A stretch of DNA of 64,000 bases from a virus. The position numbers and the translations under genes are program-made. The stretch lies in IMG/VR virus record IMGVR_UViG_3300045988_129434; one strand, given 5' to 3'. Of this stretch, positions 27,026-31,294 are shown piece after piece. Below the pieces are notes generated by a model. That model worked only from the letters and a program-made list of their open reading frames with translations, was not told where the DNA came from and did no database searches. Each line of letters begins with the position of its first letter. Position 1 is the stretch's first letter.

Positions 27026-27156
27026 TTTTTGCAGTAAAAGCCGGTGCGTGGTTAAGGTAATTCCCTCCCGCTTTAATCGCAGGGTGCCAACAATGAGTGT
27101 GGTTGGGGAGTTGGCAAAATTAAAAAAGGGAGAGAAGAAAAAGAAGAGGTGTTTAA

Positions 27157-27468
27157 ATGGGATGTGAAAATAATTGCGTGAATGAACACCGATTAAAAAA
27201 AATCGAAGAAGATTTTAAGGAATTTAGAGATAAGAACTCTAAAGATCATAAAGAGTTTTTTAATCGACTGGAAGATGTTGAGAAAGACATGATTTCTTCT
27301 AAAAGCGACAGGGAGCACATTAATGAGAAATTAGACGAAATCAGCGGTAATGTTAAGGTTCTTATGGAAAAACCTGGGAAAAGATATGAAACGATTGCTA
27401 CAAGTGTTTTGACAGGAATAATCGGAGCGTTAATAGGATTTATCGCAAGCGGTGTTTTTCCGATGTAG
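27157..27468 (+). CDS. XhlA-like coiled-coil protein with C-terminal TM anchor
   Basis: HRLKKIEEDFKEF..coiled coil..TSVLTGIIGALIGFIASGVFPM. Confidence 0.5.
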   Translation: MGCENNCVNEHRLKKIEEDFKEFRDKNSKDHKEFFNRLEDVEKDMISSKSDREHINEKLDEISGNVKVLMEKPGKRYETIATSVLTGIIGALIGFIASGVFPM

Positions 27469-27497
27469 CTAGATTCCATTTCAGGGAGGGAAGTGGA

Positions 27498-27749
27498 ATG
27501 GATTTAAAAAGAAATTTTTATAAGGAATTTATAAAAGAAGAAATTGATTTTTATTTGAGGGAGGCAAACTTTGATGAAAGGGAGCGCTCCCTCTTTTTGT
27601 ATAGAAATAGTAAAATTCCATTGGAAGAAGTAGCAGAAAAAATGAATTGTAGCGTTAGCACTATTAACAGAATAAATCGAACGATGAAAACAAAGATCAT
27701 CAAAACAGCACCTAAATATTATAGAGGAATTTCAGAAAATTGGAAATGA
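27498..27749 (+). CDS. small sigma-region-4/HTH-like regulator
   Basis: 83 aa; ERERSLFLYRNSKIPLEEVAEKMNCSVSTINRINRTMKTKI. Confidence 0.5.
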   Translation: MDLKRNFYKEFIKEEIDFYLREANFDERERSLFLYRNSKIPLEEVAEKMNCSVSTINRINRTMKTKIIKTAPKYYRGISENWK

Positions 27750-27843
27750 CATATTGGTGATAGAAATGTGACAGTTTTATGGAATGGTGAATAACGGTCC
27801 CGTCATTTAAAATTAAATCATAAAGACAGGGGAGGAAAACGTT

Positions 27844-28353
27844 ATGCAACCATTTCCGACATATCAAAACTTCGGATATCAGCCACAGTATGGAGGATAT
27901 CAACAGTATAATCCTTTACAACCGCAATATGACAGATTGGCTCAGATGCAGACACAGTATAATCAGCAACAGTTATATAACCAACCTGTTCAGCAGGCTC
28001 AAACTCCTGGTCTGAATGGAGAAATTGTGGATGGCCTGGACGTGGTAAAGGCGAAGAATGTTGACATGAGCGGCCAGCCTACCTTTTATCCAAAATCCGA
28101 TTTGTCAGAAGTATATGTAAAAAGGCTTATGGCAGATGGAACAAGTCAGATTATTACATATAAGGCAGTTCAGCCGGAAGATGAAAAGCAAAAGGAAGAT
28201 CAATCGTATGTTGATATTCAGATGCTTAATTCTATGCTTGGACAAGTTAAAGCAGAGATATTACAGGGAATTGGCGGAGAACTATCTGAGATTAAACAGA
28301 TGATTACACCGATAGAATCTCCTAAAGTGCAGAGGGGAGGTAATCAGAAATGA
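27844..28353 (+). CDS. protein with Q/Y/P-rich (prion-like) N-terminus and globular C-terminal domain
   Basis: MQPFPTYQNFGYQPQYGGYQQYNPLQPQYDRLAQMQTQYNQQQLYNQPVQQAQ.. Confidence 0.65.
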   Translation: MQPFPTYQNFGYQPQYGGYQQYNPLQPQYDRLAQMQTQYNQQQLYNQPVQQAQTPGLNGEIVDGLDVVKAKNVDMSGQPTFYPKSDLSEVYVKRLMADGTSQIITYKAVQPEDEKQKEDQSYVDIQMLNSMLGQVKAEILQGIGGELSEIKQMITPIESPKVQRGGNQK

Positions 28354-28601
28354 TGAATATGCAATTTAACCCGATGCAACTTATGCAAATGATGAAAAAT
28401 GGAGGAAACCCTCGTCAAATGCTTATAAACATGATGAAACAACAGGCCGGAAATAATCCTGTGATGTCAAATGCTTTACAGATGATGGAAAAAGGAGATT
28501 CCAAAGGCTTAGAACAGCTTTGTAGGAATCTTGGGAAAGAAAAGAATGTTGATATAGATCAAATGATGAATCAGATAAAAAATCAGTTTGGAATGAAATA
28601 A
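28350..28601 (+). CDS. Met/Gln/Asn-rich small protein
   Basis: 83 aa; roughly one residue in five is Met (MMNMQFNPMQLMQMMKNGGNPRQMLINMMKQQ..). Confidence 0.6.
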   Translation: MMNMQFNPMQLMQMMKNGGNPRQMLINMMKQQAGNNPVMSNALQMMEKGDSKGLEQLCRNLGKEKNVDIDQMMNQIKNQFGMK

Positions 28602-28680
28602 ATTAAATCGCTACAACAATTAAAAGAGCCGCGGAACTTTTGATTTTGTAAATATAAAAATCAATAAGGAGGTAATCTCT

Positions 28681-29400: not shown

Positions 29401-29612
29401 TGAGAAATCAGCAGTTGTTTGATAATCTCCAGATTTATGACACAGTTTTGCAGCTTATGACATTCTTGTGGGCTGCGGACGATGCAAGTAATACTGATAT
29501 TATTGAGGAATTACAGAAACAAAATTCTAAATATCTGGAAACGATTATCAGACAGAACAAAAAAATAATAAGCATGTTGGAAACGCAAAGTTCCATATCT
29601 ACACCTAAGTAG
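29400..29612 (+). CDS. hypothetical protein (70 aa)
   Basis: ATG overlaps the upstream TAA (TAATG). Confidence 0.5.
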   Translation: MRNQQLFDNLQIYDTVLQLMTFLWAADDASNTDIIEELQKQNSKYLETIIRQNKKIISMLETQSSISTPK

Positions 29613-29686
29613 TCTTGCGAAAATAACGAAAAGGGGTAGACGTGGTAAGTTTATCCCTTTTCTTCATTGGAAAGGAGATAAAGAAT

Positions 29687-30106
29687 ATGGCTGAATTTAC
29701 AAGCCCGTTTGTTCAGAGGATAGCGGCTGGGCAGAATGCAGTGTTGTTAGAAGATCCTGTTAAAAGTAGATGTGTAAATCATCGTGCAGGTTCTGGTCTG
29801 GTTTGTGTGGCAAATAGCGGAAACGACTGTAATCCTGCGAGATATAGAGTATATGGAAAGGCAAATATAGCTATTCCAACTGGCGGAACAGTTGGAGCGA
29901 TTTCGCTTGGATTATCATTAAATGGAGAGGTGTTACAGACATCCCTTGCAACGGTTACTCCGGCAGCAGTAGAAAATTTCTTTAATGTCTCTTTTGAAGA
30001 AATTGTTTGCGCTGGGAAGTGCCAGGTAAACTTGGCAATAACCAATCCCAACACCCAGGCAATCGAAGTTGAAAATTTAACGCTTATTGTAGAGCGTGAG
30101 TGCTAG
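29687..30106 (+). CDS. beta-rich protein, possibly BclA-CTD/C1q-like jelly-roll
   Basis: 139 aa; RYRVYGKANIAIPTGGTVGAISLGLSLNGEVLQTS..NLAITNPNTQAIEVENLTLIVER pattern; AAGGAG RBS. Confidence 0.55.
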   Translation: MAEFTSPFVQRIAAGQNAVLLEDPVKSRCVNHRAGSGLVCVANSGNDCNPARYRVYGKANIAIPTGGTVGAISLGLSLNGEVLQTSLATVTPAAVENFFNVSFEEIVCAGKCQVNLAITNPNTQAIEVENLTLIVEREC

Positions 30107-30117
30107 GAGGTGTCGGT

Positions 30118-30882
30118 ATGCATGAATTGATTAAGAAGATTGAAGATATTGCTAAACAGGATATTGAGTGCATGGCAGCGAAGGGGTACGATCACATTGA
30201 TCGGAAATGTTTTGGCGAGGCTGTAGATGTTTTGAAAGATGCTATGCAGATGAAATACTTTGTGGCGGAAACCATGAAAGCTTGTCTGGAAACTGAGTAC
30301 ATGAAGGAGATTAAAATTCCGAACAAAATCCATGAAGGCGAGCTGACAGAGAGAATGTTAGAGGAATACGATTCAAACCCGGATTTTGGAGTGATGGGAA
30401 ATGGTAGATATGGTTATAGAGGACGTGCAGCAAATGGACGGTTTGTCCATCGCTCTGGTCGAGGACGTTCCGCTGGATATACCCCGTATCTTCATATAAT
30501 GCCGGAGATGGATGAGTATGATGGAATGTACGATGAAATCCCTTATCCGATGACTGGCTATCGTATGGGTTATACAAGCGGAAGAAACGGAAACTACAGT
30601 GGAAATATGTCGAATACCGGAGGCGGTTCCGATAATGGCAGATATGGATATGATGGTATGAACAGACCTTCTAGGTACGGTGAATCTTATGATCGTATGT
30701 CCGAGTATAGACGCCACTATACAGAGTCCAAAAATCCAGAGGATAAAAAGCACATGGAGGAATACATGAAACGTTATGCGAAAGATTTCATGGATTCTTT
30801 CAGTGAGGTAAAGGCTGACGCCGACCCGGCTGCATGGCAGGCATTGAAGCAGGATATGGTTAAATTTGTTCAGAGTATGTAA
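30118..30882 (+). CDS. protein with central G/Y/R/M-rich disordered region
   Basis: GNGRYGYRGRAANGRFVHRSGRGRSAGY...GRNGNYSGNMSNTGGGSDNGRYGYDGMNRPSRYG; AGGAGG RBS. Confidence 0.65.
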   Translation: MHELIKKIEDIAKQDIECMAAKGYDHIDRKCFGEAVDVLKDAMQMKYFVAETMKACLETEYMKEIKIPNKIHEGELTERMLEEYDSNPDFGVMGNGRYGYRGRAANGRFVHRSGRGRSAGYTPYLHIMPEMDEYDGMYDEIPYPMTGYRMGYTSGRNGNYSGNMSNTGGGSDNGRYGYDGMNRPSRYGESYDRMSEYRRHYTESKNPEDKKHMEEYMKRYAKDFMDSFSEVKADADPAAWQALKQDMVKFVQSM

Positions 30883-30964
30883 ATAAGGAAACAGAAGGGC
30901 TTGTTGCTTTAGAGCGACAGGCTCTTTTGAATATAAAAAGAAAGATAGAAAGGCAGGAAGAAAA

Positions 30965-31294
30965 ATGATTTTACAGATTAACAAGGGTAACAAAAGGATT
31001 TATCAAGAAGCGGAAAGCATTTCGTTATCTAAGGTGGATTTATCCGAAATACCGAAAATCTCAAAAGATGATTTGTTAGAGGTTTTGAATTTAGAAGTAA
31101 ATCCAGAAAATAAGATGTACTTTGATATGGATGGAATAGCGTCGGATGGAGAAAGACTTAATGCTGAAAAGATGATTAAGGTGGCTGTTCTTTCAGATGG
31201 GGAAATTTCTCATAATAACAAGACGTTGATTTTTTCAGGAAATACAACTATTTATCTTTTGAACAGTAATGGAAAGACGATACAGAAATTTTAA
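30965..31294 (+). CDS. hypothetical protein (109 aa)
   Basis: ORF track. Confidence 0.55.
   Translation: MILQINKGNKRIYQEAESISLSKVDLSEIPKISKDDLLEVLNLEVNPENKMYFDMDGIASDGERLNAEKMIKVAVLSDGEISHNNKTLIFSGNTTIYLLNSNGKTIQKF

Follow-up and report, generated by a model that had tools for sequence, protein, structure and literature searches.

What is a block of compositionally extreme genes doing between two head-completion genes of a phage? The question is raised by IMG/VR virus record IMGVR_UViG_3300045988_129434, 64,000 nucleotides of viral DNA that we analysed at full length (the window), in which an initial annotation, made from the letters alone, had described positions 27030-31294 as a nine-gene module of low-complexity proteins inserted among head genes. 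The nine open reading frames (ORFs) are all present in that interval, on the plus strand. Our results show that positions 27157-32920 form an accessory insertion, placed at a hot spot that separates two head-completion genes. Seven of its genes, g2, g3, g4, g5, g7, g8 and g12, represent a single copy of a phage cassette that is conserved and horizontally mobile. Phages and prophages of Bacillota from animal guts carry this cassette in their thousands, and versions of it occur in Bacteroidota and Actinomycetota.

An accessory insertion with a conserved gene order

The insertion lies within a siphovirus-type structural block. Its left border is a 112-aa gene in the connector position (conn112; 26687-27025, plus strand) and its right border a 132-aa gene in the neck position (neck132; 32931-33329, plus strand), neither of which belongs to the cassette. 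A search seeded with an alignment of the major capsid protein retrieved 80 related viral contigs. The homologues of conn112 and neck132 are direct neighbours, -18 to +197 nt apart, in six capsid-related loci; an XhlA-like gene stands alone between them in seven, a HExxH gene of the g11 type stands alone in about 14, and the full cassette is there in three to four. Because relatives are empty at this site or carry different cargo, we regard it as a hot spot for accessory cargo, and since it is missing from sister phages whose head and neck genes are homologous, the cassette is not an essential part of the virion. It is this comparison, and not family matches, that bears out an insertion between head-completion genes: neither conn112 nor the three small neck-position genes (132, 181 and 130 aa; 32931-34274) has a Pfam or PHROG name, so that the terms connector and neck hold as positions and not as family assignments.

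A tblastn search with g5 returned 28 phage records, and in the three that were inspected (Dulem virus 35, bajarodcaudo virus 5 and Butyrivibrio phage Ceridwen) the same families follow one another in the same order. The order is fixed, with a small helix-turn-helix (HTH) protein, a Q/Y/P-rich protein, a Met/Gln-rich protein, g5, a small beta protein and an R/G/Y-rich protein, and then the HExxH peptidase g12, and the cassette has six to eight genes. When viral loci were collected with g5 as the only seed, at least four of the six partner families were found in the same order and on the same strand in 77 of 85. Over 146 g5 loci, g3 was present in 127, g8 in 106, g2 in 103, g7 in 89, g4 in 74, g12 in 64 and g1 in 31. 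In the control, 77 capsid-related phages without g5, the families g7, g8 and g12 were never present, and g3 with g4 occurred once, on a contig that ends before g5. Two gene pairs are tightly coupled: g4 overlaps the stop codon of g3 in 65 of 73 loci (by 4 nt in the window) and is translationally coupled to it, and g8 starts at most 20 nt from the stop codon of g7 in 75 of 76.

The initial annotation had named the lack of co-occurrence outside this genome as the outcome that would count against it, and the fixed order recurs in well over 100 independent loci. Its limits for the module stood only in part, since the insertion is real, and the right end at 31294 came too early and took in g9, which is not part of the unit. 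Because g12 is canonical and directly follows g8 in most loci, the unit extends to 32920, about 1.6 kb further. The statement that the gene set is unusual and assignable to no known system also holds, as Pfam, NCBIfam and PADLOC gave nothing above curated thresholds (Bro-N on g10 excepted). Taken as a whole, that interpretation is partly supported: the insertion and the family calls survive, the boundary does not, the suggested spore role is very unlikely and the decoration role finds little support.

Proteins encoded by the cassette

The signature protein is g5 (28681-29400, plus strand), which consists of an acidic N-tail (K+R 1, D+E 4), a Gly/Trp-rich hydrophobic segment, an amphipathic helical region with a hydrophobic periodicity of 3.6 residues, a PxPxY motif and a C-terminal CxC(x)nC tail. 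It is G/W-rich as first described, containing GWGGFGGGWGGNGGGF and 11 Cys, and it ends in YTGCGCGTCGC. The protein matches phrog_16490 (E 6e-86) and belongs to a family of more than 6506 proteins at 90% clustering, none of them named in any source, which an exhaustive profile search resolved into 2172 clusters at 50% identity. The uncharged Gly/Trp/Phe/Ile-rich stretch has a median length of 31 residues, and the median Cys count among homologues is 11 for g5 and 4.5 for g7. A CCC motif in the amphipathic helical region is invariant, and PxPxY and the terminal CxC cluster are conserved; many loci were retrieved with a CCC-containing pattern, and conservation of CCC is better judged from the phages found by tblastn and from word-index homologues. 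Metal binding by the Cys motifs is possible. Readings of these motifs as a precursor of a ribosomally synthesized and post-translationally modified peptide (RiPP) or as metallothionein-like were dropped, there being no modifying enzyme in the cassette. A reading of the sequence revealed no lipobox in g5, and no embedded gene pair was found, so that g5 does not qualify as a spanin.

The window has a close relative, L147 (IMGVR_UViG_3300045988_143266), in which the cassette DNA is 99-100% identical except in g5, where identity drops to 50-83% with sharp edges (28600-29470 of the window against 4400-5250 of L147). This indicates that g5 alone was swapped as an allele between the two. The idea of g5 as a generally fast-evolving specificity gene was rejected, since over many locus pairs it does not evolve faster than its partners. 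A metagenomic protein, P0385, has the N-half of g5 fused to a GDSL domain, a fusion that probably arose through deletion. The end of g5 is overlapped by g6 (29373-29612, plus strand), a small helical ORF that is 98.7% identical in L147 and has a protein-level homologue at the same position in L083 and three other loci; it is probably real but sporadic.

The 139-aa product of g7 (29687-30106, plus strand) is confidently predicted to be a stand-alone jelly-roll of the TNF/C1q type, like the C-terminal domain (CTD) of BclA. An AlphaFold2 (AF2) model of it (pLDDT 91.4, pTM 0.84) has the ten-strand jelly-roll of the BclA CTD/C1q-TNF superfamily, and Foldseek matched the model with probability 1.00 to PDB entries 9h38, 1rj7, 8d02, 7r1m, 9h3d and 1wck (TM-scores 0.62-0.77), among them the F-BclA CTD (9h38, E 3.6e-7), an ExsF-peptide complex (9h3d, TM-score 0.77) and BxpB (8d02), with EDA-A1, ExsFA and BclA as further matches. 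The structure search thus confirms the resemblance to BclA-CTD and C1q that had been noticed in the sequence. No Pfam family, BclA_C and C1q included, matched g7 at E <= 1; a neighbouring protein in another locus matches BclA_C (3.2e-5). Stand-alone relatives of g7 occur in uncultured sipho-, podo- and myoviruses (BFVD), and the family counts 4284 proteins at 90% clustering, none named in any source. In some lineages, including a sister of the window phage, the g7 slot is filled by a Cys-rich 'type B' beta protein with the consensus MACKxxCKLCDxLxIS...KYCIVxAQxIP...IRTRTxYST (L011 7872-8297; L002 7914-8333; L122 6575-6967; L231 1960-2250). No homology between type B and g7 was detected (hhalign probability 0.1%), and type B had no match in the PDB or in PHROG; it is another large uncharacterised family.

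Three of the partners are remarkable for their composition. In g3 (27844-28353, plus strand) a Q/Y/P-rich N-terminus precedes a small beta-rich domain, and the protein closes with a C-terminal helix and a basic tail; it matches phrog_21718 (E 9e-61), is the most frequent partner of g5, and belongs to a family of more than 7172 proteins at 90% clustering, again without a name in any source. Its first ~55 residues are Q/Y/P-rich, in keeping with the prion-like N-terminus reported before, and Gln makes up 17% of the whole protein. In g4 (28350-28601, plus strand), an 83-aa Met/Gln/Asn-rich helical protein with NPxQ-type repeats, 19% of the residues are Met, close to the proportion first given. 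We do not trust the TAL-repeat score of g4, in which weak repeat matches are added up. The protein g8 (30118-30882, plus strand) has helical N- and C-terminal parts round an R/G/Y/M/D-rich centre, which agrees with the G/Y/R/M-rich centre described earlier; in the alignment the motifs RxRxxNGRFxxxGRG and YDRYxxxRRxY are conserved between the helical ends, and g8 is not mere low complexity. Among non-redundant homologues, the Q+P+Y fraction of the g3 N-terminus has a median of 0.47 against a background of 0.11, and the R+G+Y fraction of the best 60-aa window of g8 has a median of 0.48 and a minimum of 0.40, against a background 95th percentile of 0.35. The composition biases of g3, g4 and g8 are kept far above background and are not due to chance. 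That proteins of the cassette may self-assemble or form condensates, as the initial annotation suggested, is plausible.

The cassette regulator is putatively g2 (27498-27749, plus strand), an 83-aa stand-alone HTH protein of the sigma-70 region-4/LuxR-like type, always first in order where it is present. The HTH/sigma-like call is upheld by matches of the sigma-70 region-4 type, to TIGR02937 (E 1e-5), with Pfam HTH_23 and Sigma70_r4 below their cut-offs; g2 also matches phrog_1190 and phrog_36 (both E 4e-5). The match covers only the region-4 end of TIGR02937 (positions 101-163 of 165), and sigma-70 regions 2 and 4 were not found together; with region 4 only, g2 is therefore no sigma factor on its own. 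Neither scans for promoters and terminators, nor Rfam, nor a folding of the 131-nt leader upstream of g1 yielded anything. The first gene of the insertion, g1 (27157-27468, plus strand), encodes an N-terminal coiled coil with a C-terminal transmembrane anchor, an architecture that fits XhlA, and the XhlA-like call was corroborated by a match to phrog_937 'hemolysin' (E 3.5e-16); its match to Pfam XhlA (PF10779) stays below the curated threshold (14.2 bits, cut-off 34.7, E 0.051). XhlA-like or transmembrane-coiled-coil genes stand at the head of the cassette in several lineages, and g1 is an optional first gene or neighbour and not a core member.

The canonical last gene, g12 (32534-32920, plus strand; phrog_1233, E 1.9e-11), follows g8 in 63-67 loci and encodes a 128-aa minimal HExxH (HELGH) zincin, of which g11 (32078-32455, plus strand; HEIFH; phrog_1233, E 2.6e-22) is a paralogue. 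H60, E61, H64 and E89 are invariant in 17 diverse sequences, and on these signatures both are predicted to be minimal gluzincins, with HExxH and a downstream Glu within ~110-130 aa as in ImmA/IrrE, SprT/Spartan/WLM, MJ1213 and PolyVal gluzincins. Unlike in those families, all matches of g11 and g12 are below curated thresholds, namely weak Pfam matches of g12 to DUF6782 and SprT-like and weak PDB profile matches to IrrE (E 0.049), Spartan, WLM and MJ1213. They also differ from ImmA/IrrE in having no fused HTH; no Pfam Peptidase_M78 match was found, and no repressor adjoins in the canonical cassette. In other lineages the peptidase is replaced by a phrog_3754 protein of ~120 aa with a conserved EDCxxRAxS motif (L003 5716-6093; L019 5239-5625; L119 7972-8340; L122 7481-7834; L113 7508-7873), which suggests that the two are interchangeable processing enzymes; that the phrog_3754 protein is a cysteine peptidase is a guess.

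Between g8 and g11 lie two later additions. The first is g9 (30965-31294, plus strand), a lineage-specific ORF of 109 aa, bracketed by two copies of a 59-nt direct repeat (30895-30953 and 31314-31372, plus strand; 71% identical); jackhmmer found no g9 in other g5 loci, and it is present in L147. The second is g10 (31383-32081, plus strand), a Bro-N anti-repressor (Pfam Bro-N, E 4.5e-9; phrog_463, E 4.5e-24) that is not a member of the cassette; L147, elsewhere 84-100% identical, lacks a block that contains it (31351-32082). As g9 is lineage-specific and g10 is missing from L147, both were added later inside the cassette. Each 59-nt repeat consists of a GC-rich hairpin-like part followed by an AT-rich tract, which suggests that small terminator- or promoter-bearing units were inserted one by one inside the cassette. 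An AT-rich motif common to the regions upstream of g9 and g10 has no further copy in the window.

Distribution among gut phages

The loci come from faeces or rumen of humans, lemurs, rodents, pigs, chickens, yak, horse and rabbit. Metagenome-assembled genomes (MAGs) with matches belong to Lachnospiraceae, Oscillospiraceae, Ruminococcus, Erysipelotrichaceae, Bacteroides, Prevotella, Aphodosoma, Marinilabiliaceae, Atopobium, Collinsella, Gastranaerophilaceae and further groups; binning of phage contigs into MAGs can err, and the host spread is not based on MAGs alone. A Prevotella contig carries the HTH gene, g3, g4, g5 and g7, followed by an R/G/D/Y-rich protein, and contigs of Atopobium and Collinsella carry g3, g5 and g7. 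In a cultured Bacteroides uniformis phage and in crAss-like phages, g5 is found with an R/Y/D-rich protein and DUF7841 nearby, and in the B. uniformis phage also with a HExxH peptidase. The 'beta + coiled coil' proteins of Bacteroides phages showed no relation to g3 (hhalign probability 1.5%). Because the neighbouring beta proteins are undetectably related, only g5, the peptidase and composition tie the Bacteroidota version to the cassette. The cultured carriers that we found are two, Butyrivibrio phage Ceridwen and Bacteroides phage C3_41T2LP. Their homologues of cassette genes are QHJ73766-QHJ73771 in Ceridwen and C341T2LP_00031-00036 in C3_41T2LP. For Ceridwen, which lacks an integrase, only lytic growth has been observed (PMC7372960). 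The cassette is present in this phage and in crAss-like phages and is therefore not purely a device of lysogenic conversion.

The cassette occupies at least five kinds of genome position, and the conserved position of a virion structural module was not found. In Dulem-35-like phages it lies between an SPP1-gp7-like minor capsid gene and the scaffold gene; in L002, L003, L122 and L135 it comes directly after holin or endolysin genes, and in L009 directly before holin and endolysin; in some lineages it adjoins integrases; and in the crAss phage cr125_1 a g5 homologue follows a holin and a transmembrane-coiled-coil gene. A Pfam scan of four ORFs on each side of the cassette in 27 lineages recorded, upstream, CHAP three times, Amidase_2 twice, GH25, Glucosaminidase, NlpC/P60 and three holins, and downstream integrases (five), scaffold (four) and capsid (four) genes, a Cro/CI-type HTH, GH25 and M23. 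Since the cassette is absent from sister phages, is carried by phages of differing morphotypes and varies in position, it is not an essential structural module.

Searches for a described counterpart gave little. Megablast of the region against 50,697 phage genomes found no match, a plasmid collection gave only two marginal matches, and sequence and profile searches of the PDB with g3, g4, g5, g7, g8, g11/g12 and the type-B protein gave nothing significant. In PADLOC-DB 2.0 the best E values, 8.6e-4 to 0.02, fell on coiled-coil or short HTH stretches only, and no defence system was recognised. We found no published description of the cassette in the literature.

What could the cassette do?

Tentatively, we propose that the products of the cassette assemble late, on the cytoplasmic side of the membrane, into a complex connected with lysis or egress; every step beyond the existence of a conserved mobile cassette is inferred. 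The genes would be expressed late under their own region-4 HTH protein, g2. The Gly/Trp-rich segment of g5 would insert in the cytoplasmic membrane, leaving the short acidic N-tail outside, and the amphipathic, Cys-bearing helical part would form a cytoplasmic stalk, probably oligomeric. On this stalk a TNF-like trimer of g7 would dock as a hub, perhaps through the Pro/Cys-rich C-tail of g5, in the manner in which BclA and F-Anchor peptides bind the TNF-like trimer of BxpB/ExsF. The products of g3, made with g4, and of g8, made with g7, would provide multivalent sticky regions that build a membrane-attached layer or condensate, and the zincin g12, or elsewhere the phrog_3754 protein, would process or dismantle a component. 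Acting at the membrane in the phase of lysis or egress, the complex may tune the timing or completeness of envelope breakdown, or the release of particles, rather than contribute to virion construction.

The cassette is placed there because it often lies beside XhlA, holin and endolysin genes, and this neighbourhood lends real but indirect support to the lysis-accessory role that the initial annotation had listed among its options. On reading the sequences by eye, without a predictor, no signal-peptide-like hydrophobic segment was seen at the N-terminus of any partner; the lack of visible signal peptides, the Cys-rich g5 and g7 and the acidic g5 N-tail weakly favour a location of the bulk of g5 in the cytoplasm. 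One of the closest parallels is with the PBSX- and SPbeta-type lysis cassettes of Bacillota phages (xepA-xhlA-xhlB-xlyA), in that an XhlA-like anchored coiled coil heads the unit of the window and the gut-phage cassette recurs beside holin and endolysin genes. In contrast to those, the cassette itself encodes no holin or endolysin, PBSX lacks counterparts of g3, g4, g5, g7, g8 and g12, an XhlA gene accompanies only 31 of the 146 cassette loci, and the cassette is also found in phages of diderm hosts. PBSX also carries XepA, described as a soluble, beta-rich accessory protein whose role is unclear (PMC6834076).

For the docking of g7 on g5, the BclA/BxpB (ExsFA) nap of the Bacillus exosporium and the F-ENA anchor complex offer a possible model of a filament joined to a TNF trimer: g7 has the same TNF/C1q jelly-roll (Foldseek E 1e-5 to 4e-7) and, like BxpB/ExsF, is a stand-alone domain of ~140 aa. 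The differences are that identity is only 7-12%, that g7 has no collagen-like partner, that the hosts include non-sporulating bacteria and that the g7 slot in some lineages holds the undetectably related type-B protein.

Several observations weigh against a role in lysis or egress. The junction between lysin and integrase genes is a classic site for morons in temperate phages, so that proximity to lysis genes is confounded; an endolysin domain lies within four ORFs of the cassette in about 9-10 of the 27 lineages, an enrichment that is itself rough, since the ~1/8 expected for a random gene in a 60-gene phage is our own estimate. In the window the probable endolysin is ~30 kb from the cassette. 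The AF2 model of g5, from an alignment of 73 sequences, has no confident fold (pLDDT 39.8), and the oligomeric state, the topology and the contact with g7 that are proposed for g5 are inferred. In addition, we know of no lysis step for which monoderm and diderm hosts alike would require proteins of this kind. Knobs of the TNF-like kind are characteristic of virion fibres, and in the protein P0373 a tail-fibre-like N-part (phrog_4242, E 8e-10) is fused to the C-domain of g5, on a contig with a type-B beta ORF and a DUF7841 gene downstream of the fusion; both points favour a place in the virion.

A fibre or cargo of the virion is accordingly a close and serious alternative to the lysis or egress model, and one to which we give a real, if minor, chance. 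Here g5 would be a trimeric helical stalk and g7 its TNF-like knob, forming an accessory appendage as in BclA filaments or needles of the Sf6 type; the Gly/Trp-rich N-terminus of g5 could be a fusion-peptide-like tip that inserts in the membrane on infection, and the other proteins could be assembly chaperones, or proteins that are encapsidated, ejected and trimmed by the zincin. The TNF/C1q fold of g7 occurs both in phage fibre tips and in BclA, and the tail needle of Sf6 ends in a TNF-like knob. Four lineages have the cassette, co-oriented, within head/neck clusters, and in the sister lineage L011 it is accompanied by a gene for a 637-aa tail-fibre-like protein with a C-terminal GDSL esterase (9700-11613), between g12 and the neck gene. 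The zincin resembles those that have reportedly been proposed, by Iyer et al. in 2017, to process virion-delivered proteins, and a depositor labelled the peptidase homologue in L005 'PolyVal metallopeptidase'. Labels given by depositors to g5 homologues of crAss and Bacteroides phages are 'spike protein/glycoprotein' and 'viral fiber'. As in class I fusion proteins, spanins and the P22/Sf6 needle, a hydrophobic segment rich in Gly and aromatic residues is followed in g5 by a long amphipathic helical region, and g5 gave weak PDB profile matches to the heptad repeats of class I fusion proteins, which at E 0.2-3 are not significant. Unlike those proteins, g5 carries conserved CCC and terminal CxC motifs; a monoderm host requires no spanin, and most carriers of the cassette infect monoderm Bacillota.

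Against an appendage speak the sister phages with homologous head, connector and neck genes and no cassette, and the highly variable genome position. The same cassette is carried by siphoviruses and crAss-type podoviruses with no visible adaptor domain, and its own HTH, the XhlA-type partner and the R/G/Y- and Q/Y/P-rich proteins are foreign to known fibre modules. No member matches a structural PHROG, with the exception of a 177-aa protein of L005 that has a weak coiled-coil match to phrog_473.

Is the cassette instead a conflict module acting on the host envelope, spread as a moron for superinfection exclusion, receptor masking or anti-phage defence? It is accessory and mobile, it sits at hot spots with other cargo (XhlA alone, g11 alone, Bro, GDSL fibre genes), and temperate phages often carry it with the lysis genes on one side and the integrase or Cro/CI genes on the other. 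A membrane protein, a peptidase and an HTH protein are among its products, and the g5 allele was swapped between cassettes that are 99-100% identical elsewhere, as happens with specificity determinants. We nevertheless consider this unlikely: no PADLOC match rose above noise, the cassette has no nuclease, NTPase or other effector enzyme, it is present in a phage known only from lytic growth and in crAss-like phages, and g5 is not generally faster-evolving than its partners. The exclusion systems known to us have one or two genes, not seven.

A bolder form of the proposal, which we hold to be rather improbable, is that the cassette makes a membrane-anchored self-assembling layer or condensate, with a Cys-bearing helical stalk, a TNF-like trimer as nucleus, paired Tyr/Gln-rich and Arg/Gly/Tyr-rich proteins to hold it together, a chaperone-like Met-rich partner of g3 and a protease that matures or dissolves the assembly. 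Eukaryotic condensate scaffolds of the FUS type combine a Tyr-rich prion-like part with an Arg/Gly-rich one, much as the cassette encodes the Q/Y/P-rich g3 along with the R/G/Y-rich g8. The likeness is one of composition only; g8 has conserved linear motifs, and the cassette has no RNA-binding domain. If this were true, the cassette would encode a viral organelle or coat without a described counterpart in phage biology, which could organise late assembly and release, or encase progeny outside the anaerobic gut through oxidation-triggered cross-linking of Cys and Tyr.

The initial annotation had also thought of a spore or cell-surface moron. The proteins would then be coat- or exosporium-like material (Cys-rich, Tyr-rich, CotG-like, ExsFA-like) with a GerE-like regulator; the best structural matches of g7 are indeed exosporium proteins (BxpB, ExsFA, BclA, F-BclA), many hosts are sporulating Lachnospiraceae, and there are what we take to be parallels in composition with coat proteins. 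This is very unlikely given the non-sporulating and diderm host range, even if host assignments from MAGs can err: g5 genes, usually with g3 and g7, occur in contigs of Prevotella, Bacteroides, Aphodosoma, Collinsella, Atopobium and Gastranaerophilaceae, g5 occurs in crAss-like phages, the partners have no secretion signal visible by eye, and no sequence match to any coat or exosporium family was found. A capsid decoration network, another role that had been suggested, finds little support in a cassette that occupies unrelated positions, has sipho- and crAss-type carriers and is absent in sister phages.

Other features of the window

Upstream of the insertion site are an SPP1-type portal gene (22563-24092), a gene in the scaffold position between the portal and major capsid genes, the major capsid protein gene (25321-26403; phrog_29) and an 87-aa gene. 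Downstream, a holin (34380-34610; phrog_881, E 4e-24) lies between the neck and tail-tube genes, the latter recognised by a weak match (35641-36123), and relatives carry a holin at the same place. This is the holin nearest to g1, 6.9 kb downstream of it and 1.4 kb from the end of the cassette, and no endolysin lies near g1 within the window, where the only endolysin trace is a weak peptidoglycan-binding match at the window edge (63387-63521). The lysis genes of this lineage appear to be dispersed.

The tape measure gene (39746-43390) matches its own PHROG profile only from position 134 onward, and a GIY-YIG/HNH homing endonuclease gene (38680-39555; phrog_314, E 7.5e-65) lies between it and an unassigned ORF of 530 aa (37050-38642); possibly a mobile element has split the tape measure gene. 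Four anti-repressor-type genes (Bro-N, Rha-like, AntA and P22_AR_N/ORF6C) and a Fic/DOC gene (31383-32081, 34854-35552, 48174-49007, 49890-50675 and 51704-52501) are interspersed with the structural genes, an unusually heavy load of regulatory morons for the late region of the window. A 479-aa protein (45847-47286) with an N-terminal double zinc ribbon and BspA-type leucine-rich repeats is encoded next to a minus-strand block (43983-45349) in a genome that is otherwise plus-strand. In the left part of the window there are five tRNA genes (Asn, Gln, Met, Arg and Thr; at 7010-7082 and 13606-14390), consistent with a large phage genome with its own tRNAs.

Significance

Since its members belong to no curated family, apart from the g7 fold and the zincin motif, and since we found no paper on it, we rate the cassette as outside the known kinds of system, although it may prove to be an elaborate variant of a lysis-accessory or fibre module. 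The families of g3, g5 and g7, each with thousands of unnamed members, make up a sizeable and coherent block of the dark matter of the gut virome. A cassette that is kept intact across phyla, in sipho- and crAss-type morphologies and in temperate and apparently virulent phages must give a general advantage in the gut. The two cultured carriers make it directly testable; understanding what it does could bring to light a new step in egress or in the biology of the phage particle, and it could be the first case in a bacterial virus of paired prion-like and RGG-like assembly proteins.

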